This document shows positions 1-9,199 of a DNA stretch of 9,199 bases, piece by piece. Below the pieces are notes generated by a model that saw only the letters and a list, made by a program, of their open reading frames with translations, ran no database searches and was not told the origin of the DNA. Both the position numbers and the translations under genes were made by a program. This DNA is from a virus (Duplodnaviria; Heunggongvirae; Uroviricota; Caudoviricetes). Within the stretch, counting starts at the first letter, position 1. Every line of letters starts with the position of its first letter. The DNA lies in the IMG/VR virus record IMGVR_UViG_2602041549_000006, positions 1 to 9,199 of that record. One strand, given 5' to 3'.

Positions 1-107
1 GATTCAGGGGGCCAGTCTAGAACATGATTCGCTTATCCCAGTAGTCATTACACAGGCGATACTCTTCCGTTTTCTCACCTGACTTCATCTGGTCGAAATA
101 TTCACCG

Positions 108-410
108 TTAACTGCCAGTTGAAGGTTGGCCACGACCTTCCTCCTTTGGCTTGTGAATTTGTATCGTCATGCCGCTTTGAGTGGTGACTACAATGACAGA
201 ACCAGGCTGAAGGCTGTTAAGATTGAATGCTTCGTAAAACGAATCCAATGCCAGTGCTTTTTTATTCTTTCGGTTCCACCAACGCCATCCCTTGCTACAG
301 GCTACATCGACAATCCACTGTACACTCCTGTAAGCCATATAAAACCAGATGAGCAAAACCTGAAGGAATGCTATCCAGTCAATAATCGTATATTTCGCGA
401 AGGAGTCCAT
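108..410 (-). CDS. Small hypothetical protein (about 100 aa) with one strongly hydrophobic N-terminal segment (IIDWIAFLQVLLIWFYMAY); probable small membrane protein
   Basis: ORF 108..413 in the track begins with GTG at 413; the ATG at 410-408 is preceded by a strong SD (AGGAGGTGA) and overlaps the upstream stop as TGATG. No recognisable domain. Confidence 0.45.
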   Translation of the reverse strand: MDSFAKYTIIDWIAFLQVLLIWFYMAYRSVQWIVDVACSKGWRWWNRKNKKALALDSFYEAFNLNSLQPGSVIVVTTQSGMTIQIHKPKEEGRGQPSTGS

Positions 411-919
411 CACTTCACCTCCTGCTGCGGTGCTGCTGGCATTTCACGCCAGTGCGTAACTGAGTGCGGATCCGGATATTCGGTGCCATCATCCCAGCGA
501 TTGCCATTCCACATTGCAGACCACATCTCACCGTCTTCATACATGACCATTACCGGAATTAACTTATCCGGCATTCGCTCACTACAGCTTATCCAACCAT
601 CCGGAGTTGCCGGAGAATTGCCATTTACCAAGTCAGCTCGAACATATAGCGTGTCATCATGGTGCTGATTGTGGCTGCACCACGTTAATTCGCTTAACTC
701 GCCATCTTCTGGCCATACTCCAGCCGTTTGCAGCCAGATATGGGCTGGCGCATCTTGGCAAGGTGTATTAACTGGCAACTTGTAAGTTTGGCTTACAGGT
801 TCTGCTCCCAGTGATGCCAGTGCAATCCGTGCCACTTCCATTTGTTCGCCACGGGTAAGCCCGTTATCAAGCGGATTTTTAATGGATAATTCAATACGTT
901 CTTTGGTAATAGTGGTCAT
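410..919 (-). CDS. Phage accessory protein, DUF551-like C-terminal region (169 aa)
   Basis: ATG at 919-917 with AAGGA upstream. The C-terminal stretch GWISCSERMPD...THWREMPAAP resembles the DUF551 pattern common in enterobacterial prophage early-left regions (recalled from memory). Stop overlaps the next start. Confidence 0.55.
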   Translation of the reverse strand: MTTITKERIELSIKNPLDNGLTRGEQMEVARIALASLGAEPVSQTYKLPVNTPCQDAPAHIWLQTAGVWPEDGELSELTWCSHNQHHDDTLYVRADLVNGNSPATPDGWISCSERMPDKLIPVMVMYEDGEMWSAMWNGNRWDDGTEYPDPHSVTHWREMPAAPQQEVK

Positions 920-1431
920 GCCGCGTTTCCTTCTTTCTTATTAACAATTACACCGTCATATATTTCATTAAGGTGCCCTCTCAACTCCATACGCCTTAAT
1001 GCAAATAACATGTAATCGCATTCAACCTGCTTATTTCCAGTAAATGGCTTATCGTCAGGATTACCCCAACAGCAATTACCCTTGGGCCACCCATGTACTT
1101 TCCGTACTCTTCCGTTAACAACGTGAAGTAATCCCCAGCCGGGAGGTAAATCCTCAACTGAAATAATTCCCGGCTCACTAATAAAGAATCGCCAGTCGCC
1201 CATTCCAAGAGATGGATTTTTACGAAAACGCTTTTTTCTATCTGCCAACAAGTCAGCACGAGAACACTTCGCCTCTATCAGGCATGATGCTGAATTTCTG
1301 AATCCCATAGCATCTGGCTGTTCTCCGGTACTGGTTACAGCTATAAAGCGGTCATGAAAACAAACCTTGAACCCATTGCGCTTAAGGAACTTATACGCAA
1401 TCTGACAGAGTTCGCGGTGTGTTAACGCCAT
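916..1431 (-). CDS. Hypothetical protein (171 aa) with a PD-x12-ExK arrangement (PDAMGF ... LIEAK); possible PD-(D/E)XK-fold nuclease
   Basis: Track ORF 916..1767 overlaps the upstream gene; the internal ATG at 1431-1429 has an AAGGAG SD and sits 1 nt after the upstream TGA stop. The motif was read directly from the translation; the fold assignment is inference. Confidence 0.5.
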   Translation of the reverse strand: MALTHRELCQIAYKFLKRNGFKVCFHDRFIAVTSTGEQPDAMGFRNSASCLIEAKCSRADLLADRKKRFRKNPSLGMGDWRFFISEPGIISVEDLPPGWGLLHVVNGRVRKVHGWPKGNCCWGNPDDKPFTGNKQVECDYMLFALRRMELRGHLNEIYDGVIVNKKEGNAA

Positions 1432-1432
1432 A

Positions 1433-2053
1433 TCACTCTCCTTTGATGCGAATGCCAGCTGCGCTTGCTGATTCTTCATATGCGCGTTTAGCAGCGTTAA
1501 GGATTGCTGCCAGTGGCGTATAGCCGCCATCCATTCGGATTGTGTTGTGGATGCCAGCCATTGTGTCGCGCAATTTGCTGTGGCTAGCAGACAGTTCTGC
1601 AATGCGCTTCTCTGCGGCTTCCAGCTTCTCGCGCATATCGTCAACGTACTCGACCAGAGATCCGCCAGCAGGAATTTCGCATTCCTCGACCAGTTGGAAG
1701 TAGATATCAGCTGCGGCCCGTGTGTTGCTATGCCTAGCGTCGCCCATCTCACCTTCACGAAGAGCATCGCGTTCGGCGGTAAGATTGGCTATTTTGCTGT
1801 CTTTGCCTTCCAGCTCAACGCGCAGCCTCCCTACCGTTAGCGCAATATCCTCGTTCTCCTGATCGCGGCTTTTGATGTATTGCAGGTTTCTTTCCCGTTC
1901 ATCCAACAATGCCAGCGCGATATCTGGCGAAAAGTGCTTCATAAAATCGTTAAGCGCATTAATTCGCTGATCGAAAGGCATTACAGGTGCTTCACCAGCA
2001 ATTTTTGTTTTTTCAGCGATTTCACGAAGCTTTTGATAATCAATCTTGCTCAT
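1433..2053 (-). CDS. Ead/Ea22-like phage protein (206 aa) with a coiled-coil segment
   Basis: The N-terminus MSKIDYQKLREIAEK matches the typical start of Ead/Ea22-like prophage proteins (recalled). AAGGAG SD present; ATGA overlap with the upstream gene's stop. Confidence 0.6.
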   Translation of the reverse strand: MSKIDYQKLREIAEKTKIAGEAPVMPFDQRINALNDFMKHFSPDIALALLDERERNLQYIKSRDQENEDIALTVGRLRVELEGKDSKIANLTAERDALREGEMGDARHSNTRAAADIYFQLVEECEIPAGGSLVEYVDDMREKLEAAEKRIAELSASHSKLRDTMAGIHNTIRMDGGYTPLAAILNAAKRAYEESASAAGIRIKGE

Positions 2054-2889
2054 TGGATGACTCCTTTACGAAGCTGTTCGGCGATATCTTCGAGAACGCC
2101 ATCAGAGAATGAACGGTCAAAATCGCCTTCCGGCGCATTAGCCATAAACTCAGTAGAGGTAAGAATCATCCGGGCAATATCCGCGGCGTTCTTCGCAGTA
2201 TCATCAATAAAACCAGCTTCCCAGGCAGCCAGCATTCTGTTCGCCACAAAGTAAGCGCCCTCCTTGCGTGCTTCAGTCTTCACTTCAGCCAGGAAAGCAT
2301 CGGTGGCTGGGGTGTCTGATTGCAGAGACTTTGCGCGATAGTCATTCCACCCTCTTGCATACATGGGATTAACTTGCACTCCATCTTTTACGCAATATGC
2401 CTGCCCTCCACGGTTGATAACCTTGATTTCGTCCATAGCGCCAGACTTCATCCCCGCATTCTCCGCTGCCAGCTCCGCGCACTTGGCCTCAAGAGCGGCA
2501 ACCACTTCCTGATGGTCTTTGTACTTAACGTATGAGCCGGAGATGTCATCACCTTCGGTGTTTAGCCATGCGTCATTGCAATTCACTGCGTAGGTTCTGA
2601 TGCTCTCCCGCCTATGACAGACGCCAGGCCAGTCAATAAAGTATCCGCATTCCTTCTCAGATTGCTTAAGCGATGTATTTTCAGCAGCCATCTTCGCGCA
2701 TTTAGCCTCAAGGTTATCAATCGTGATTCCAGCAGAACGACACTCCCGCAACGCCGTTTCCAGTTTTGATTCAAGTTCACCGAACTTACGGACAAGATAT
2801 TCAGCGTTTGTTTCGTTAACCTTTAAATCACTTGGGATGCATTTACCTTTCAGAAAACCATCCATCTCAATTAGTGACATTTGTTTCAT
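2050..2889 (-). CDS. Coiled-coil phage protein with an internal tandem duplication (Ea22-like region); start ambiguous
   Basis: Long minus-strand ORF. The track start at 2907 is GTG with no SD; the ATG at 2889 has GGAG upstream, so either could be real. The motif LEAKCAxxAAEN occurs twice in the protein and is visible as a DNA repeat (2476-2495 versus 2697-2715). Confidence 0.5.
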   Translation of the reverse strand: MKQMSLIEMDGFLKGKCIPSDLKVNETNAEYLVRKFGELESKLETALRECRSAGITIDNLEAKCAKMAAENTSLKQSEKECGYFIDWPGVCHRRESIRTYAVNCNDAWLNTEGDDISGSYVKYKDHQEVVAALEAKCAELAAENAGMKSGAMDEIKVINRGGQAYCVKDGVQVNPMYARGWNDYRAKSLQSDTPATDAFLAEVKTEARKEGAYFVANRMLAAWEAGFIDDTAKNAADIARMILTSTEFMANAPEGDFDRSFSDGVLEDIAEQLRKGVIQ

Positions 2890-2983
2890 TTCTTCCCACT
2901 CCGCCACATCGCATTCAGATATTTGTTGTCATTAACAGAACCGAAACTCTTTCTCTTAAGCAAGTCCTCTCATGGTAAATTCC

Positions 2984-3277
2984 TCAGTCATTACTGATAG
3001 CGCCATAACGTGAGCGGTAATTACGCAGGCGCGGGTCAATTTCAGGGAAGTGGGTATATGTGGCTTTGCGGAATGGTCGGATTGATGTCTGGTAAATTCG
3101 CTCGCGTTCTTCTTTCTCTGCAAGCCATATACAATGGCGAAATTCCTTTTCCTCTTTCGTTTCCTGCGGTATCGACATTATCAGGTTGTAGTTTTTCCTG
3201 AATTTATCCAGCACCTCCGATACGGAATTGCCGGAACATCGGCGCGCGTCATCCGCACCATACAGAGGCGCTGGCAT
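2984..3277 (-). CDS. Hypothetical small phage protein (97 aa)
   Basis: ATG at 3277-3275 preceded by an AGGAG SD; same orientation and tight spacing with neighbouring genes. No recognisable domain. Confidence 0.5.
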   Translation of the reverse strand: MPAPLYGADDARRCSGNSVSEVLDKFRKNYNLIMSIPQETKEEKEFRHCIWLAEKEERERIYQTSIRPFRKATYTHFPEIDPRLRNYRSRYGAISND

Positions 3278-3293
3278 GGTTTTCTCCTGTTGA

Positions 3294-3842
3294 TTATTTA
3301 GCTAACTTTTTCCAGATCGCTGAAACGTATTTGGCTTGGTGAATGGCATCATCAAGCGCGTTGTGGCGAGTTCCTTTGAATGGCATATCTCGCTTAGGGT
3401 CGAATCCTATTACCTTCCCAAGTTCGACGATTGTTCTTACGTCGCGGTCATTCCACCACTGCCACGGAACTGGCTGCCCTGTCAGCGAATAACTGTTTCG
3501 GAGAATAACGCAGTCAAATGATGCTCCATTCCCCCAAACCTGAACGAATTTGTGGTTAGCGTTCTTTATGATGAATTCAGATAACCATGAAAGAGCCGTT
3601 GAAAGCTCCTGAGTGTTGCTGGTTAGCGATTTTCTGGCTTCTTCACTCTGTTCCAGCCACCATAAAATCGTTGAAGCGTCAGGACGCGCTCGATATCGCA
3701 TTGATGACTCAAGCGAGATATTTACCGAGAACTCTTCTCCTGTTTCTCCGGTATTCGGGTCAAAGAATACCGCCCCAATAGAAATAACTGGCGCGTATGG
3801 CCCGTTGCCCATTGTTTCAAGGTCAACCATCAAGTGATTCAT
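3294..3842 (-). CDS. 3'-5' exonuclease, DEDD(h)/DnaQ-like fold (182 aa)
   Basis: N-terminal MVDLETMG (Exo I motif, D-x-E) and C-terminal HNALDDA (Exo III motif, H-x4-D) read from the translation. AAGGA SD upstream of the ATG at 3842. Confidence 0.7.
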   Translation of the reverse strand: MNHLMVDLETMGNGPYAPVISIGAVFFDPNTGETGEEFSVNISLESSMRYRARPDASTILWWLEQSEEARKSLTSNTQELSTALSWLSEFIIKNANHKFVQVWGNGASFDCVILRNSYSLTGQPVPWQWWNDRDVRTIVELGKVIGFDPKRDMPFKGTRHNALDDAIHQAKYVSAIWKKLAK

Positions 3843-3850
3843 GTAAGTCC

Positions 3851-4330
3851 TTAAATTGCGTGAATAGCGTGACGAGGGAAGGGGAGAGTTACTGGCTCCT
3901 CGTCTGGGTAGATAGGTTTGTTATGTTTGTGCCACTCGACATGACATGACTTGCAGAGCCACATCACATCGGTTGGTTTGCTGTAGTCGCAGTGGTGCGC
4001 CTGTGGTTTACATTCTGATCCGCAGCACTCACATTGTGGTGGTCGGATTAGCTTACCGTCGCGCAAAAAATTACCCACAATGATGTGGGCTTTTCTTTTC
4101 CATGGGTTGCTCTGAATGAACCGCTTTTTGGCTGCGTTACACCGTTCTCTTCCGCGTTCCGATGATTGATATTCTCTCCTTGCTGATACTCGATGTGGCA
4201 ATCCAGCGCGTTCTTTGTCGTATTCAGCCAGGCAAGCCCGGCAAGCGGCAGTTAATCCATCTCTGGATGCTCTTCTGATTTGAAAGTCCCTTTCTTCCTT
4301 ATGTTGATGGCATCTTGAGCAGATTTTCAT
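3851..4330 (-). CDS. HNH endonuclease (159 aa), zinc-binding, free-standing
   Basis: C-terminal QCECCG ... AHHCDYSKP ... WLCKSCHVEWH gives the HNH catalytic His pair plus Cys4-type metal ligands; additional CxxC pairs at the N-terminus. AGGAG SD upstream. Confidence 0.7.
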   Translation of the reverse strand: MKICSRCHQHKEERDFQIRRASRDGLTAACRACLAEYDKERAGLPHRVSARREYQSSERGRERCNAAKKRFIQSNPWKRKAHIIVGNFLRDGKLIRPPQCECCGSECKPQAHHCDYSKPTDVMWLCKSCHVEWHKHNKPIYPDEEPVTLPFPRHAIHAI

Positions 4331-4339
4331 ATTCAGCTC

Positions 4340-4813
4340 CTAGAACGGAATATCCGAATCGTCGAAGTTCATAGGTGGTTCGCTGTGATTCCCATGCTGC
4401 TGAGATTGCTGTCTTTGTTGCTGGCCGTTATTTCGCTGAGGTGAAGACTGTTCATTGCCTCCTTGCTTGCCACCAAGCATTTGCATGGTTCCACCAACGC
4501 CTACGATAACTTCGGTAGTGAACCGATCCTGTCCACTTTGATCCTGCCATTTTCTTGTCCGCAATTTGCCTTCAAGATAAACCTCTGAGCCTTTCCGCAG
4601 ATACTCGCTGGCAATTTCTGCCAGTTTCCCGCTCATTACCACACGGTGCCACTCCGTCTGCTCCTTTTGCTCTCCAGTTTGCTTATCACGCCATTGTTCT
4701 GACGTAGCAACTGTAAGGTTTGCAAATGCCGTTCCTGATGGTGAATATCTGATTTCTGGATCATGCCCAAGGCGACCAATAATGATCACCTTATTTACGC
4801 CTCTGCTTGCCAT
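4340..4813 (-). CDS. ssb: Single-stranded DNA-binding protein SSB (157 aa)
   Basis: OB-fold N-terminus ([17 protein letters not shown]...), Gly/Gln-rich linker and the canonical acidic tail DDSDIPF. Confidence 0.9.
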
Positions 4814-5521
4814 TTATGCCGCCTGTTTTAGCTCGTTAACTCTGATGTTCATTACCTGAACGCATTTAGCCTGCGCATCCTCATTGCCAGCCATTAATTG
4901 CCAGTCACGCTGATAACGCTCTATGAGTTTTTTCTTGTCAGTTTCTGTTGATGCATAATCGCTGAAGTCTTTCAGGATTTGTTCGCAGTCAACCGATGGA
5001 GATTTCTGGTTGGTATTTTCTGGTGATGGTTTGTTATCTGATGCTGGGATTGCCCATCCCGGCAGCGATGGAGGGAGCCAGTAAAATCCTGTTCCATCCT
5101 TCAGTTTTGCCCTGTGCCACCCCTGCTTTTTATCGAGAGATGTTTGTGCGAAACCTTCCTCAAGGTTATACAGATACCGACCGATTCCCCATTGAACGGC
5201 AGCACGCTTCATTGCACCGGAACGACCACCTTTGACGGCTTCTACCTGCGTGTTTTCAGCAGCATCCCATTTGGTTACCCATTCGGAATCAATCTTGATT
5301 GATATGCCGCATTCAACTCCGCCGTTGTTGGGAATATCGCGGTATTCATTGCGCCATCCTGCTTTGCCGCAAACATCGTCCAGGCGTTTCATGATTGCCC
5401 GGTTCGTGACATAAGCCAGCACCATAGCCCACACCTTGCCATCGCGTGTTTTACCGCTTTGCTGTATTCGCCATTCGATATCTTCAGGGCTGAATGGCTC
5501 ATCGAATTTGTTCAAATCCAT
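4814..5521 (-). CDS. Single-strand annealing recombinase, Rad52/Sak-like family (235 aa); functional analogue of lambda Bet / P22 Erf
   Basis: Motifs GWRNEY, GGVECGISI and AVQWGIGRYLY fit Rad52-family annealing proteins (recalled). Sits immediately upstream of ssb, with a GAGGTGA SD. Confidence 0.65.
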   Translation of the reverse strand: MDLNKFDEPFSPEDIEWRIQQSGKTRDGKVWAMVLAYVTNRAIMKRLDDVCGKAGWRNEYRDIPNNGGVECGISIKIDSEWVTKWDAAENTQVEAVKGGRSGAMKRAAVQWGIGRYLYNLEEGFAQTSLDKKQGWHRAKLKDGTGFYWLPPSLPGWAIPASDNKPSPENTNQKSPSVDCEQILKDFSDYASTETDKKKLIERYQRDWQLMAGNEDAQAKCVQVMNIRVNELKQAA

Positions 5522-5620
5522 AATTCACCTCAGAATGGACACGGCCCAAGAAAATAACGCTGATTTAATACTTCGACTCGGGACAAATTAAGGCATACCC
5601 GCATTCCTTCGCGGTCACCA

Positions 5621-5779
5621 TTATGGCGATACCAGAGAGCTTTCTGCGTGTACATGCGTCTCTGTAACTTGCTCTCCTTCACTGTGGTTGCAAGTGACAT
5701 GAATATCTCCTTCGTTACCGATTAATTCTTTCATCTGACGAATGAATTCTTCGTCTGACCATTTATCTGTAAAACTCAT
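5621..5779 (-). CDS. Small protein (52 aa) in the kil position, downstream of and translationally coupled to cIII; function unknown
   Basis: ATG at 5779-5777 overlaps the cIII stop as ATGA. Assignment is by position only; the longer track ORF 5621..5809 would overlap cIII by 34 nt. Confidence 0.35.
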   Translation of the reverse strand: MSFTDKWSDEEFIRQMKELIGNEGDIHVTCNHSEGEQVTETHVHAESSLVSP

Positions 5780-5946
5780 GGACGGCCTTGTTGTTTCAAA
5801 ATATCCCAAAGCTTTTCGAGCAAACTTTTCATTCTTGGTTGTTTAAAGTCTGCTCCGGTTAAAATGTTTTTTCGTGAATGCTGTACCGATAAAATCGGGT
5901 TGAAAGGGCGAACCGATGCCGCCCCTGCAATAGCGAACTGTTGCAT
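5776..5946 (-). CDS. cIII: CIII-like protein (56 aa); regulator that protects CII from FtsH
   Basis: Internal ATG at 5946-5944 with an AAGGAG SD. The protein MQQFAIAGAAS...LLEKLWDILKQQGRP resembles lambda CIII (MQYAIAGW...LIDILNQPGVP) in start, length and C-terminus. The longer track ORF would read through the terminator hairpin. Confidence 0.65.
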   Translation of the reverse strand: MQQFAIAGAASVRPFNPILSVQHSRKNILTGADFKQPRMKSLLEKLWDILKQQGRP

Positions 5947-6011
5947 AGGATGCTCCTTCTGTTTGATTGCATAACGAAAACGCCTCGAGTGAAGCGTTAT
6001 TGGTATGCATA

Positions 6012-6036
6012 TAAAAAAGCCCTCACACTGGAGGGC
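6012..6036 (-). terminator. Intrinsic terminator on the minus strand (tL1-like), downstream of the N plus orf156 unit
   Basis: The minus strand reads GCCCTC-cagtgt-GAGGGC followed by TTTTTTAT: a 6-bp GC stem, 6-nt loop and T6 tract. There is no T-tract on the plus-strand side. Confidence 0.6.
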
Positions 6037-6098
6037 AAAGAAGATTTCCAATAATCAGAACAAGTCGGCTCCTGTTTAGTTACGAGCGACATTGCTCC

Positions 6099-6126
6099 GT
6101 GTATTCACTCGTTGGAATGAATACAC
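6099..6126. repeat. Perfect 9-bp inverted repeat (GTGTATTCA-N10-TGAATACAC) just 3' of orf156
   Basis: Read directly from the sequence; no adjacent U-tract, so not a classical terminator. Confidence 0.5.
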
Positions 6127-6140
6127 AGTGCTTATTCGTA

Positions 6141-6611
6141 CTAATAAAACACCCAGTTTTCTGTTTCTTGGTTGTGTCCAAAGTTATATTCAATACCTGG
6201 TGTTGATGTATCAATATTCTTCATCCCATCAACAAGAGTTGATACAACAGCCAAATCTTGTTTGATTCTCATCAAATGGTATTTCTTCCGGCGCAATAAA
6301 CTTTCAATGGCAAGTTTCTTCGTCGGGAATGCAAAAGATCTTTCTGCATTTTTTGCTACTTTCTTAATTGCATATCTATTTCTCCTTTGTTTCCATTCCT
6401 GTAACCACTGATTTGGTGCTGGTTTAAAATTAACAATCCAATGCGCAGGAACCAACCATGCATAATGCTCTGTCTGATGAAAAGCTATATATTGAAGTGC
6501 GAATATTTTGATTCCATCTTCTTCAACTGTCGCTTGGAATCTCCAGAAAACAGGCATTCCATCATGTTCAGTTTCTGATTCAGGAAAAGGTACGCTCCAT
6601 GATTTTGTCAT
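6141..6611 (-). CDS. Hypothetical protein (156 aa), AT-rich moron in the ral/sieB position directly after N; function unknown
   Basis: ATG at 6611-6609 with SD GAGGTGA overlapping the N stop codon. The segment is visibly AT-rich compared with its flanks. No recognisable domain, no transmembrane segment. Confidence 0.6.
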   Translation of the reverse strand: MTKSWSVPFPESETEHDGMPVFWRFQATVEEDGIKIFALQYIAFHQTEHYAWLVPAHWIVNFKPAPNQWLQEWKQRRNRYAIKKVAKNAERSFAFPTKKLAIESLLRRKKYHLMRIKQDLAVVSTLVDGMKNIDTSTPGIEYNFGHNQETENWVFY

Positions 6612-6619
6612 ATATCACC

Positions 6620-6955
6620 TCAAATAAGTGGTTTGCTGCCTAATTTCATTTTCTGGCGACCAACACAAGTCACACCCATTTCACTGCGTGGCTTGCGGTA
6701 GTAAATACGATTCTGTTTACTCTCGACTTCATCTGCCTTCTTGCAGCGAAGGATTCCGAGTGATATTGCTTTTTCAGAAAGGCTTAAACGCTTTCTTGGG
6801 GCTTCCTGAACAGGTTCCTCACTGTCTGTGCCGAAGATAGAATCAATGATGTTGCAGATGGCATCACGCTCGATAGCCAGCTTTCTGCGCCGCTCATGAC
6901 GGCGAGTTTTGGCATTTCCTGCAAATGTTGATTTCCCGTACACGATTACCGTCAT
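6620..6955 (-). CDS. N: Antitermination protein N (112 aa) with a P22-type arginine-rich motif and a lambda-like C-terminus
   Basis: The N-terminus MTVIVYGKSTFAGNAKTRRHERRRKLAIER matches the P22 N ARM peptide (recalled); the C-terminus YYRKPRSEMGVTCVGRQKMKLGSKPLI parallels the lambda N C-terminus (WYSKPGERGITCSGRQKIKGKSIPLI). ATG at 6955 with AGGA upstream; the track ORF extends to 7039. Confidence 0.85.
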   Translation of the reverse strand: MTVIVYGKSTFAGNAKTRRHERRRKLAIERDAICNIIDSIFGTDSEEPVQEAPRKRLSLSEKAISLGILRCKKADEVESKQNRIYYRKPRSEMGVTCVGRQKMKLGSKPLI

Positions 6956-7074
6956 GATGTTTTCCTCATGTGAAATGGCTTTGGTGGTGATGCGCCAGAT
7001 GCTGATCTTCTGGTTGCTGTCGTTGCAGCTGCAATTCACATCACCGCCAAATCCATCTCGTTTGGTATCTGTTT

Positions 7075-7109
7075 GCGCTTTGTCAGCGCCCCATCGAAGT
7101 TAAAGAGCA
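7075..7109 (-). promoter_or_regulatory. nutL: boxA (TGCTCTTTA) and boxB hairpin (GCGCTGACAAAGCGC)
   Basis: On the minus strand: boxA-like TGCTCTTTA, a 12-nt spacer, then a 4-bp GCGC stem closing a loop that contains GACAA. This matches my recollection of P22 nutL boxB. It lies between the predicted PL and N. Confidence 0.7.
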
Positions 7110-7154
7110 TGCCAATCTGTTCCGTTTGGCTTCCAGCTTCCTGCTGATGGCTAA

Positions 7155-7183
7155 ATAGTACGATGTGTACTTTATTGAGTCAA
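7155..7183 (-). promoter_or_regulatory. PL candidate: -35 TTGACT (7178-7183), 17-bp spacer, -10 TACTAT (7155-7160), overlapped by operator-like palindromes
   Basis: Hexamers read on the minus strand. The 13-bp perfect palindrome TATTGAGTCAATA (7173-7185) overlaps the -35 and AGTAC-N5-GTACT (7157-7171) overlaps the -10/spacer. Confidence 0.5.
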
Positions 7184-7242
7184 TACAAAATGTTCTAAAT
7201 ATAATTAGTTTTTTATAACGCTTTGTATTTAATAGGTTTATA

Positions 7243-7278
7243 TTTTGGAAAAAGAAAACCCGACGCTAAGGTCGGGTT
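7243..7278 (-). terminator. Intrinsic terminator downstream of cI (weaker on the plus strand)
   Basis: 8-bp stem AACCCGAC/GTCGGGTT with a 6-nt loop; on the minus strand it is followed by TTCTTTTTCC, on the plus strand by ATTGTTGTGTATTTT. Confidence 0.6.
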
Positions 7279-7308
7279 ATTGTTGTGTATTTTAGAGTTG
7301 TGAGGCTG

Positions 7309-7968
7309 TTAACTAAATGTCTCTTCAGGCCACTGGCTGGCGATAACTTTCCCTACTACGGAACAGCTATCATTGCATGGAATCATTGGATATTGCGGGT
7401 TTAGTGGCTGTAGGAACACCTGACCGCTATCCCTGATCAGTTTCTTGAAGGTAAACTCATCACCTCCAAGTCTGGCTATGCAAAAATCACCGGGCTCAAT
7501 AGCCTGCTCAGGGTCAACAAGAATTAACATCCCGTCAGGAAAGCTTGGCTTGGATCCTGTTGGCGCGGTCATGGAATTACCTTCAACCTCAAGCCAGAAT
7601 GCAGAATCACTGGCTTTTTTGGTTGTGCTTACCCATCTCTCCGCATCACCTTTGGTAAAGGTTCTAAGCTCAGGCGAGAACATCCCGGCCTGAACATGAG
7701 AAAAAACAGGGTACTCATATTGTTTTTTAACGGGGGCAGATGAGTATTCGCCAACAGGTGAAAATGTACCGTCGTGGTTGAATGAGACGTTATCAATACC
7801 AAGGTATTTAAACACCACACCAATCTCGTCAAGAGATGGATGACGAGATCCGCGCAACCAGTGACCAATTCCACCCTGCGTCATACCAAGCTCTTCAGCT
7901 AACTTCTCTTGAGTTATGCCGAGTTCTTTCATTCTGGATCTAGCCAGTTCATACCATTTCATTTTCAT
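7309..7968 (-). CDS. cI: CI-type prophage repressor (219 aa): non-lambda N-terminal HTH domain fused to a lambda-cI-like LexA/S24 C-terminal domain
   Basis: The C-terminal about 130 aa ([19 protein letters not shown] ... [12 protein letters not shown]) is near-identical to lambda cI as I recall it, including the Ala-Gly cleavage site and the Ser and Lys of the catalytic dyad; the N-terminal about 85 aa is different. ATG at 7968-7966 with an AAGGA SD; the track ORF extends to 8043. Confidence 0.9.
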
Positions 7969-8024
7969 ATCCTTATTATTACGCTCTGTACTAAAACCAT
8001 CCATGCACAAGATGTATTTTTTGT

Positions 8025-8053
8025 TTGCATTCCAAAAGTACATATCGTATTAT
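8025..8053 (+). promoter_or_regulatory. PR candidate: -35 TTGCAT (8025-8030), 17 bp, -10 TATTAT (8048-8053), inside the OR region 7969-8079
   Basis: Best sigma70-like match on the plus strand upstream of cro; SD GGAGGG at 8071-8076. Operator half-sites could not be defined confidently; AGTACATATCGTATT (8036-8050) and ATTACGCTCTGTACT (7979-7993) resemble the OL element. Confidence 0.4.
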
Positions 8054-8079
8054 TGTTTCATGATTACTATGGAGGGCAT

Positions 8080-8295
8080 ATGAGCAACCTACGAAAATAT
8101 CGAGAGTCACTGAATATCTCTCAAACAACACTTGCTAAGGCGGTTGGATGCACACAGGGAGCTATCGGACATTGGGAATCTGGTCGTCGCTTCCCAGACC
8201 TTAAAACATGCCGTGCTCTTGTTGCGTGCCTAAACAAGTTAGGCGCAAAAGTCAGTCTTGATGACGTGTTCCCACCGGAACACAAAGCCGCTTAA
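8080..8295 (+). CDS. cro: Cro-like HTH repressor (71 aa)
   Basis: Divergent from cI across a 111-bp operator region; ATG at 8080 with a GGAGGG SD; HTH segment QTTLAKAVGCTQGAIGHWESG. The track ORF 7909..8295 is an upstream extension without an SD. Confidence 0.8.
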   Translation: MSNLRKYRESLNISQTTLAKAVGCTQGAIGHWESGRRFPDLKTCRALVACLNKLGAKVSLDDVFPPEHKAA

Positions 8296-8305
8296 TAAGC
8301 GGATC

Positions 8306-8340
8306 CGCTCTTTATCAATCTGCACCGCCGACAACGCGGT
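8306..8340 (+). promoter_or_regulatory. nutR: boxA (CGCTCTTTA, 8306-8314) and boxB hairpin (ACCGC-cGACAAc-GCGGT, 8324-8340)
   Basis: Consensus boxA followed 9 nt later by a 5-bp stem whose loop contains GACAA, the same loop core as the nutL boxB, as expected for a P22-type N. Confidence 0.7.
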
Positions 8341-8352
8341 AACTAATTAAGC

Positions 8353-8385
8353 ACTCATCGAAAGATGAGTATTAGTGATTATTTA
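8353..8385 (+). terminator. tR1-position hairpin (ACTCATC-GAAA-GATGAGT) followed by a weakly T-rich tract
   Basis: 7-bp stem with a GAAA tetraloop between nutR and cII; the downstream tract ATTAGTGATTATTTA is only moderately U-rich, so this may be a weak or N-suppressible terminator. Confidence 0.35.
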
Positions 8386-8394
8386 CCTATGGAA

Positions 8395-8437
8395 ATAGTA
8401 AGAAATGGAACAAACAAGTTACAGCAAACTATCACAG
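8395..8437 (-). promoter_or_regulatory. PRE-like CII-dependent promoter: TTGC-N6-TTGT box (8424-8437) and -10 TACTAT (8395-8400)
   Basis: On the minus strand TTGCtgtaacTTGT lies at codons 7-11 of cII, analogous to the lambda TTGC-N6-TTGC site in early cII codons; a 17-bp spacer then TACTAT. Confidence 0.4.
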
Positions 8438-8701
8438 CGCGATGTTGATCGCGCAGAAACAGATTTACTTATCAACCTGTCAACGCTTACACAGCGCGGT
8501 CTGGCAAAGATGATTGGCTGTCATGAATCGAAGATAAGCAGAACGGACTGGAGATTTATTGCTTCGGTCTTGTGTGCTTTCGGAATGGCATCAGACATCA
8601 GTCCGATTAGCAGGGCTTTTAAGTATGCGCTTGATGGACTCACCAATAAAAAACGCCCGGCGGCAACCGAGCGTTCTTATCAAATACAAATGGAATTTTA
8701 A
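8405..8701 (+). CDS. cII: CII transcriptional activator (98 aa)
   Basis: The C-terminus LTNKKRPAATERSYQIQMEF is nearly identical to lambda CII (ILTNKKRPAATERSEQIQMEF, recalled); length and position after cro and nutR fit. Confidence 0.9.
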   Translation: MEQTSYSKLSQRDVDRAETDLLINLSTLTQRGLAKMIGCHESKISRTDWRFIASVLCAFGMASDISPISRAFKYALDGLTNKKRPAATERSYQIQMEF

Positions 8702-8712
8702 CAACATCCAGC
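8646..8712 (-). ncRNA. OOP-like antisense RNA overlapping the 3' end of cII (terminator 8645-8673, putative -10 TATAAT at 8719-8724)
   Basis: On the minus strand: stem CGCUCGG/CCGGGCG (one G-U pair), loop UUGCCG, then UUUUUUAUU; matches my recollection of the lambda oop terminator. A TATAAT hexamer lies about 70 nt upstream on the minus strand. The 5' end is inferred. Confidence 0.5.
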
Positions 8713-8723
8713 GAGGTAATTAT

Positions 8724-8867
8724 ATGCGAAAAACGCAGGAAAATAAACGCGTTAATCACCGAAAAGATGTGCTACGTGACCAGTTTTATCAGGGGGTTAA
8801 TCCAGCAATAGCTGTGCCACTGAGAGAAATACTTAACAGGTACAAAACTTCGGAGAAGTCAAAATGA
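8724..8867 (+). CDS. Small hypothetical basic protein (47 aa) between cII and the replication gene
   Basis: ATG at 8724 with a GAGGT SD; stop overlaps the next start as ATGA. The track ORF 8559..8867 extends upstream into cII in another frame. Confidence 0.4.
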   Translation: MRKTQENKRVNHRKDVLRDQFYQGVNPAIAVPLREILNRYKTSEKSK

Positions 8868-9199
8868 GCATGAATCTTATGGCTAAGGCCATGAATATAA
8901 AGGTTGGCAACCCACTGAGAAAACTGGTTCTGATTAAACTTGCCGATAACGCCAATGATAATGGCGAATGCTGGCCTTCATATCAACATGTCGCTGACCA
9001 GTGTGAGGTGAGCAGATCGACAGTAAAAAGTCACATTAGGGCACTGGAAGAGATGGGGCTTTTGAAAAGGGAATTCAGAAGAAAAGGAGAGCTTAACCAG
9101 TCAAACGTTTTTTATCTGACGCTGGATAATGCACAACAAATCCAACCAGAATCAGGTGGGGCAGGAGCTGCCCGGGGTGGGGCAGGAGCTGCCCGGGGT
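8864..9199 (+). CDS. Replication initiator, O-like, with N-terminal winged-HTH (5' partial, runs off the window end)
   Basis: Open frame from the ATG at 8864 to the window end (112 codons, no stop). The translation MSMNLMAKAMNIKVGNPLRKLVLIKLADNANDNGECWPSYQHVADQCEVSRSTVKSHIRALEEMGLLKR is HTH-like and the gene is in the O position; iteron-like repeats lie inside it. Confidence 0.65.
   Translation, partial: MSMNLMAKAMNIKVGNPLRKLVLIKLADNANDNGECWPSYQHVADQCEVSRSTVKSHIRALEEMGLLKREFRRKGELNQSNVFYLTLDNAQQIQPESGGAGAARGGAGAARG
9155..9199 (+). repeat. Iteron-like direct repeats (putative ori): 21-bp unit GGTGGGGCAGGAGCTGCCCGG, two exact copies plus the start of a third at the window edge
   Basis: Exact tandem copies at 9155-9175 and 9176-9196; each unit contains the dyad GGGCAG-gag-CTGCCC. 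In frame they encode a Gly/Ala-rich linker (GGAGAARG repeated). Confidence 0.6.

Follow-up and report, generated by a model that had tools for sequence, protein, structure and literature searches.

The small RNA LPR1 of phage lambda, since renamed PreS, is Hfq-dependent, lies between ea10 and ral, and ends at the terminator tL2a, which forms its G+C-rich hairpin and U tail (10.1101/2024.10.31.621285). It is about 88 nt long and is accompanied by a stronger processed form of 68 nt; it is made in the lytic cycle only, upon lytic induction, and raises the translation of dnaN, which supports phage replication (10.1101/2024.10.31.621285). MicL and CpxQ, Hfq-dependent like PreS, are cut by RNase E from the 3' UTRs of mRNAs or from operons and keep the terminator of the parent mRNA (10.1101/341578).

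Hairpins with a part in RNA processing are described in phage early transcripts. Those of the T7 R1.1 type are intercistronic, with a variable upper stem of about one turn above conserved residues that pair imperfectly around the cut. In T7 the 3' side is cut, which leaves the hairpin attached to the upstream RNA as a stabilizer. The RNase III sites of the lambda N leader and sib lie on the pL transcript and control the fate of the mRNA after cleavage. Both strands of these helices, which measure about 20 bp or more, are cleaved, and sib forms on read-through only. REP elements are a repeated sequence family scattered over the chromosome; barriers of this type are stable helices after a stop codon, largely free in sequence, that can block 3'-to-5' exonucleases.

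Here we analyze a stretch of 9,199 nt (the window), positions 1 to 9,199 of the Caudoviricetes record IMGVR_UViG_2602041549_000006. It contains the leftward early (pL) operon of a mosaic lambdoid phage, and no single phage record covers more than 46% of it. An earlier note, made from the sequence alone, had pointed out an inverted repeat downstream of orf156. The repeat lies in a cassette that occupies the same position as the lambda PreS cassette, in the pL operon downstream of N, with orf156 in place of ral upstream and cIII in place of ea10 downstream. Like a hairpin of the R1.1 type, it is intercistronic in an early polycistronic transcript and has a conserved, imperfectly paired base at what is here a predicted cut, but its predicted lower stem has only 2-3 bp, its mismatch is 1x1 instead of an asymmetric internal loop, and its helix is shorter. 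It shares transcript and host with the N leader and sib sites; unlike in sib, the helix lies wholly upstream of tL2a. In contrast to MicL, the conserved helix is 5' of the predicted cut, and the 5' end as annotated falls outside single-stranded, A/U-rich sequence. Unlike REP-type barriers, the helix occurs only in front of PreS, and its length, base and apex are fixed.

Gene order around the repeat

The genes flanking the repeat are all on the minus strand, in the order N, orf156, repeat, terminator and cIII, followed by kil-like and erf-like genes (Table 1). The exact boxA matches in the window are those of nutL and nutR only. The TAA of the conserved flank CGAATAA is the stop codon of the upstream gene in many relatives, and is here placed after the TAG of orf156 itself. 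The terminator downstream of the repeat, previously described as tL1-like, proved to be the homolog of lambda tL2a, with its stem at 6019-6036 (minus strand) and a T run (TTTTTT) at 6013-6018. Together with the hairpin at 5979-5998, it makes up a tandem terminator arrangement ahead of cIII. A two-directional terminator-like hairpin (AACCCGAC...GTCGGGTT, 7257-7278) lies between the repressor-like gene and pL.

Table 1. Features of the pL operon region and of the PreS cassette in the window, with the nutR boxA
Feature	Position	Strand	Description
Sigma-70-like promoter	7183-7155	minus	First element in transcription order
nutL, boxA and boxB	7078-7109	minus	boxA TGCTCTTTA at 7109-7101; P22-type boxB GCGCTGACAAAGCGC
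N-like antiterminator gene	6620..7039	minus	First gene in the pL operon; Pfam N_peptide, E = 1.6e-25
orf156	6141..6611	minus	Upstream gene; HK97 gp45 / 933W L0079 family, phrog_1636, function unassigned
Conserved 5' flank CGAATAA	6132..6138	minus	From comparison of relatives
Extended helix (predicted)	6094..6131	minus	From local folds; base GC-A-C / G-A-GC
Reported repeat, upper stem, hairpin family A	6099..6126	minus	12-bp stem, CAAC tetraloop at 6111-6114
PreS/LPR1 homolog (by sequence)	6013..6097	minus	Starts GAGCAATGTCGCTCG at 6097; ends in the terminator T run
Intrinsic terminator, tL2a homolog	6009..6036	minus	3' end of PreS; GCCCTCCAGTGTGAGGGC then TTTTTTATAT
Second terminator-like hairpin	5979..5998	minus	AACGCTTCACTCGAGGCGTT then TTCGTT; between tL2a and cIII
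cIII-like gene	5776..5946	minus	Next downstream of the cassette; phrog_550
nutR boxA	8306-8314	plus	CGCTCTTTA

The inverted repeat and its RNA fold

The sequence is exactly as the earlier note had it: a perfect 9-bp repeat with arms GTGTATTCA (6099-6107) and TGAATACAC (6118-6126) around a 10-nt spacer (6108-6117), and a gap of 14 nt (6127-6140) to the orf156 stop codon (TAG, minus strand) at 6141-6143. No T or U run adjoins it on either strand, the minus strand continuing with GGAGCAAUGUCG and the plus strand with AGUGCUUAUUCG, and the absence of a U tract bears out the view that it is unlikely to be a terminator. The stem is A/U-rich and was not called by the terminator scan, and an intrinsic terminator was rejected on these grounds.

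Perfect 9-bp inverted repeats with a spacer of 3-12 nt are expected 0.5 times per window, and 33% of dinucleotide shuffles have one; the exact pattern of the reported repeat is unique (0/200 shuffles). A second perfect 9-bp repeat, ATCTCGTCA-N9-TGACGAGAT, lies at 7823-7849 inside the repressor-like ORF, an example of what chance alone can produce in a window of this length. The bare repeat is thus statistically unremarkable, and its meaning comes from its context.

In the pL-sense (minus-strand) RNA, UUC/GAG lengthens the nine perfect Watson–Crick pairs by U-G, U-A and C-G to 12 contiguous pairs. Two more pairs, U6127-G6098 and C6128-G6097, would bring the helix to 14 pairs (6097-6128) and, past an A6129/A6096 mismatch, C6130-G6095 and G6131-C6094 to 16 (6094-6131). 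The pL-sense hairpin has a folding energy of -21.7 kcal/mol (z = -6.6). The opposite strand folds more weakly (-15.8), because the wobble pairs become A-C mismatches there. RNAalifold gave a structure without the lower stem, in which GAGC pairs with a local GCUC as a mini-hairpin instead. The lower stem is a thermodynamic prediction, and its pairs are invariant and hence show no covariation. In a search of Rfam, no family reached threshold anywhere in the window, and the matches around the repeat were at chance level only.

Relation to lambda PreS

Computed over 124 bp, window positions 6008-6131 are 97.6% identical to lambda 33920-34045, in the ral-ea10 spacer, and the repeat (6099-6126) is identical to lambda 34013-34040. 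The lambda-like seed and the tL2a terminator hairpin both match in the window cassette. By this sequence comparison, what lies between repeat and terminator is a homolog of PreS/LPR1. Expression, Hfq-binding and dnaN-regulation data come from lambda, and the window copy is known by its sequence.

The 5' end of PreS is defined by the primers P810, P1107 and P969: those for cloning and in vitro transcription start lpr1 at GAGCAATG / GAGCAATGTCGCTCG, which is window position 6097, and the full-deletion primer retains the hairpin up to ...GAATACACG / ...GTGTATTCATTCCAACGAGTGAATACACG (10.1101/2024.10.31.621285). Being taken from primer design and the band of about 88 nt, this end may be in error by a few nucleotides. 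On these coordinates the repeat is outside the annotated small RNA, since it ends at 6099 and PreS starts at 6097, with one nucleotide between. The predicted extended helix takes in the first PreS nucleotides; the repeat itself is a flanking element outside the mature RNA. By its size, a 68-nt processed form in the window would start near 6078-6080. The first 19 nt of PreS (GAGCAAT[G/A]TCGCTCGTAAC, 6078-6097) are invariant between the lambda and P22 types of the RNA, and the remainder has about 80% identity. Missing from the dominant 68-nt form, these 19 nt may be part of the processing signal and not of the regulator.

We found no sigma-70-like promoter near 6100-6180, and no -10 element common to the hairpin families described below could be recognized by eye. 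With no promoter of its own in sight, and with its appearance tied to pL transcription, PreS would have to be processed out of the operon transcript. The lambda study mentions neither the hairpin nor an lpr1 promoter, reports no RNase experiment, and does not describe production of PreS from the pL transcript (10.1101/2024.10.31.621285). PreS is not in Rfam 15.

Distribution of the cassette and of the hairpin families

At 85% identity or more, 326 phage records contain the cassette, a number that rises to 412 when P22-like copies at about 80% are included. It also occurs in 2237 of 5426 complete E. coli genomes (41%), in up to six copies each and never annotated, in Shiga-toxin phages, and in a diverged form in P22-like Salmonella phages. 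The copy in the window is an ordinary member of this very widespread cassette. In comparisons with lambda, HK97, 933W, H-19B, Dewey and mEp213, the block from CGAATAA to the terminator T run is conserved, with unrelated genes on both sides. Mosaic breakpoints flank this cassette, which spans about 125 bp, and are found at or just upstream of the CGAATAA flank: the similarity to lambda ends at 6131, and in other phages the break is at about 6132-6140. The proposal that the repeat marks a recombination junction at the insertion point of an accessory gene (moron) finds no support in this arrangement, in which the repeat is inside the conserved cassette and the breakpoints are just outside it.

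Loci were collected from viral contigs by exact patterns for the PreS seed and the PreS 5' segment (lambda type and P22 type), a retrieval that strongly diverged, hairpin-less PreS copies may have escaped. In 320 of 320 PreS-family loci of both types, a hairpin occupied the same slot. The hairpins fell into five families: A (162 loci, including this window, lambda, HK97 and 933W), B (101 loci, including P22 and mEp213), D (28 loci, including ST104), E (26 loci, in viral contigs such as L430) and F (3 loci, in viral contigs such as L447). The search patterns bias these counts, which should not be read as frequencies; in a curated phage collection, family B makes up 7 of 315 lambda-type records. 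Loci found by the seed only carried hairpin A or B in 198 of 199 cases. The single hairpin-less seed locus (L086, near 7111, minus orientation) has an insertion inside PreS that removed its 5' part and the hairpin; we take the inserted sequence to be an IS629 end. A search for the hairpin-A core without PreS after it gave 0 matches. The search of related genomes for the palindrome, suggested in the earlier note, thus found it in essentially all of them, with the core never away from PreS. A putative family C (L186, L200, L208) was discarded: an 18-nt match to the PreS 5' segment in an unrelated AT-rich phage is followed by a gene, not by PreS, and was judged a chance 15-mer match.

Family A was found in 31 upstream contexts and family B in 13, both of them with both PreS subtypes. 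Families A, B, D and E occur behind a nutL boxB of the P22 type, and A and B also behind the lambda type. The hairpin type is therefore independent of the upstream gene, of the PreS subtype and of the N/boxB type.

In P22 (L340) and ST104 (L341), positions 860-1005 hold an unannotated PreS homolog that is about 80% identical and has a terminator of its own. It occupies the spacer immediately before gene 17, which in P22 follows ORF67, and its homology to the window starts exactly at PreS +1. In mEp213 (L339), the PreS copy at 1565-1680 ends in a hairpin without a T run, and further down the operon there is another N-like gene (2003-2275).

Conservation of structure under replacement of sequence

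Covariation was computed on an alignment of 11 sequences with at least one representative per hairpin family (A2). Of the 15 pairs in A2, 9 vary in both partners, whereas the three at the base of the helix are invariant; pairing is kept in 94.5% of cells. Covariation scored 0.678, compared with 0.16 in shuffles (0/500). When the partner was slid by 1-3 columns as a control, pairing fell to 25-48%. An alignment of 7 phages (A1) agreed, and RNAalifold independently predicted the same helix.

The stems of the five families are unrelated except for a common, nearly invariant three-pair apex (A-U, U-G, U-A). At the other end, the base GC-A-C / G-A-GC is invariant across families except for the unpaired 5' residue, a purine-A or C-A mismatch being kept. 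Between them, the middle 8 bp tolerate any sequence, and the loop sequences are free to vary. From the loop to PreS +1 there are 12-13 stem positions in all five families. Within families, changes also preserve the structure: family B has a compensatory A-U to U-A exchange (GCAGA/TCTGC to GCTGA/TCAGC), and family A has wobble-preserving changes. One or two G-U pairs occur in each family, only in the pL sense, and the pL-sense fold beats the antisense fold in every family. These observations point to an RNA element of defined geometry that is read on the pL transcript. Small ORFs over the repeat (6080-6214, minus; 6092-6265, plus) were rejected as coding sequences, the slot being filled by unrelated inserts of 28-30 nt. 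In one viral contig (L062), a natural hairpin-A variant carries two substitutions in its 5' arm, by which both the A-A mismatch and the U-G wobble are closed, giving a perfect 18-bp helix that takes in GGAGCA of PreS (-30.4 kcal/mol).

Proposed role of the hairpin and alternative explanations

We consider it rather probable that an RNA stem-loop, with the repeat as its upper stem, serves as boundary and processing element at the 5' edge of the PreS/LPR1 cassette. In the order of transcription the cassette would consist of the conserved flank, the hairpin, PreS and the tL2a terminator, and a polycistronic N-orf156 transcript would read through it. An endonuclease would cut at the 3' foot of the helix, which homology with lambda places at G6098|G6097, and would free PreS with its Hfq-binding terminator. 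The hairpin would remain on the upstream mRNA (N-orf156 here, N-ral in lambda), with the 3' end at ...GAAUACACG, as a cap against exonucleases. The helix would work by its shape and length and not by most of its sequence. Among the possibilities raised earlier, that of an RNase III or mRNA-stability hairpin fares best in its RNA part, given the kept structure, the G-U pairs in the sense strand only and the position abutting a small RNA; as to the enzyme, RNase III and RNase E both come into question.

An unlikely but serious alternative is that the hairpin is only a passive insulator or exonuclease barrier, the cleavage site being set by the downstream stem-loops of PreS itself together with RNase E. 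Any stable helix would then do, by stopping variable upstream mRNA from mispairing with PreS and by blocking 3' exonucleases. The sequence-free middle of the stem and the free reassortment of the hairpin agree with this, insulation would be useful to a PreS in a mosaic region with more than 30 upstream contexts, and in MicL it is the stem-loops 3' of the cut that direct RNase E (10.1101/341578). However, a passive helix leaves unexplained why the distance from loop to PreS is fixed at 12-13, why the apex is nearly invariant, and why the base is invariant together with its mismatch. We regard as improbable a binding site for a specific RNA-binding protein of phage or host, with the five families as specificities in the manner of boxB and N. 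Replacement of the hairpin as a cassette between conserved flanks would suit such a site, as would the conserved apex and a boxA-like CGCTCGTAA 9 nt downstream of the helix. Yet four families (A, B, D and E) share the P22-type nutL boxB and two of these (A and B) also occur with the lambda type, which rules out an N-specificity element; hairpin type and upstream gene vary independently; and no candidate partner protein co-varies with the hairpin. A nut site or rrn-like boxA/boxB site was rejected as well, hairpin-then-boxA being the reverse of the nut-site order and the boxA-like 9-mer carrying one mismatch, a level at which matches occur by chance (12 observed against 7.7 expected in the window).

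An element acting at the DNA level, such as a dimer operator, a cruciform or a recombination hot spot marking accessory-gene insertion, is still harder to credit. The arms are perfectly symmetric in DNA, and mosaic breakpoints are about 5-15 bp away, but these flank the whole cassette and are not in the repeat, the stem sequence is not conserved across families, and the extended pairing needs G-U, an A-C mismatch on the other strand, the sense fold always being the more stable. The half-sites, moreover, have their centers 19 bp apart, an atypical distance for a dimeric operator. The protein-binding operator put forward in the earlier note is accordingly unlikely: five unrelated stem families fill the slot, each replacing the half-site with pairing kept and stronger in the sense strand, and their type does not follow N/boxB specificity. 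That the palindrome is a product of chance or a relic of no present function, for example a decayed terminator, we hold to be scarcely credible; 9-bp repeats of this kind do occur in 33% of shuffled windows, but the structure is kept in 320/320 PreS-family loci despite complete replacement of the stem sequence, the covariation speaks against an origin by chance, and the cassette is carried by 2237/5426 complete E. coli genomes.

Candidate nucleases

If the hairpin is a processing element, we slightly prefer RNase III, cutting one strand as at T7 R1.1, to RNase E, at roughly even odds. For RNase III speak the annotated cut, which is at or inside the helix and not in single-stranded A/U-rich RNA, the fixed loop-to-cut distance of about one helical turn, the least that an RNase III site would need between cut and helix end, and the conserved, imperfectly paired base beneath a variable upper stem. 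Against it, the helix has 16-18 positions, compared with about 22 bp accommodated by the enzyme dimer, and only 2-3 pairs would lie below the proposed cut. By the rules derived in vivo for RNase III, the two positions between the staggered cuts should be paired and include at least one G-C, and about 90% of sites are paired there (PMC6212723); the two positions just above the cut proposed here are U-G and G-C in family A, and one of them is mismatched in families B, D, E and F.

In favor of RNase E, this enzyme generates the majority of processed small RNAs that depend on Hfq. The sequence at the cut, CACG|GAGCAAU, at or inside the helix foot, departs from the RNase E preference for single-stranded A/U-rich RNA with a U two nt past the cut. 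The loop UAACUAAAC, about 20 nt downstream, fits RNase E better and matches the 68-nt form. In MicL, RNase E cutting is determined by stem-loops 3' and not 5' of the cut (10.1101/341578).

A stricter version of the processing element, in which the hairpin is an obligatory ruler-type signal for PreS that a structure-specific nuclease reads through the fixed base, the apex and the length of 12-13 bp, appears doubtful to us. RNase III in its single-cut T7 R1.1 mode would be the most plausible nuclease for such a signal. If this were true, a single cut would yield the mature form of a host-hijacking small RNA and at the same time determine how stable the N-operon mRNA is, and the five interchangeable stems would be a natural mutagenesis series defining the signal. 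More boldly, the diversity of the stems might reflect a factor of host or phage that recognizes them or that they escape.

Novelty and significance

We did not find the hairpin described as an obligate, length-constrained, sequence-replaceable partner of PreS, nor the extension of the cassette to P22-like phages, in a literature search that left aside the classical tL2 and pL-processing papers, where an earlier mention is possible. A full-text search for the hairpin or the PreS 5' sequence returned nothing relevant. PreS as a small RNA has been public since 2024 (10.1101/2024.10.31.621285), and the sequence itself since the lambda genome.

Annotation pipelines leave the cassette unmarked. The comparative pattern points to the features of the hairpin that may matter, namely a fixed base, apex and length around a free middle. 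If the hairpin is a maturation signal, it offers a handle to switch PreS off with the neighboring genes untouched, and it would link release of the small RNA to stability of the N antiterminator message. If it is a passive barrier only, it is an ordinary stabilizer hairpin beside a known small RNA.

Other observations

A hairpin followed by a T run (GAACGCTCGGTTGCCGCCGGGCGTTTTTTATT) lies at 8645-8680 on the minus strand, inside the cII-like ORF (8405-8701). It matches the terminator of the lambda antisense OOP RNA, and it had no match in Rfam.

A scan of genome contigs with a 17-mer, which was too short and gave many chance matches, yielded at least 18 true matches among the matches listed, mostly lambda-identical DNA in non-enteric assemblies. 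In L224, L239, L245, L252, L262, L268, L288 and others, the examined fragment matches lambda, the ral-downstream flank and the cassette included. The lambda-matching assemblies are assigned to Pseudoxanthomonas, Lacrimispora, Shewanella, Chromatium, Bradyrhizobium and Pseudomonas, and the lambda sequence in them is most likely contamination.
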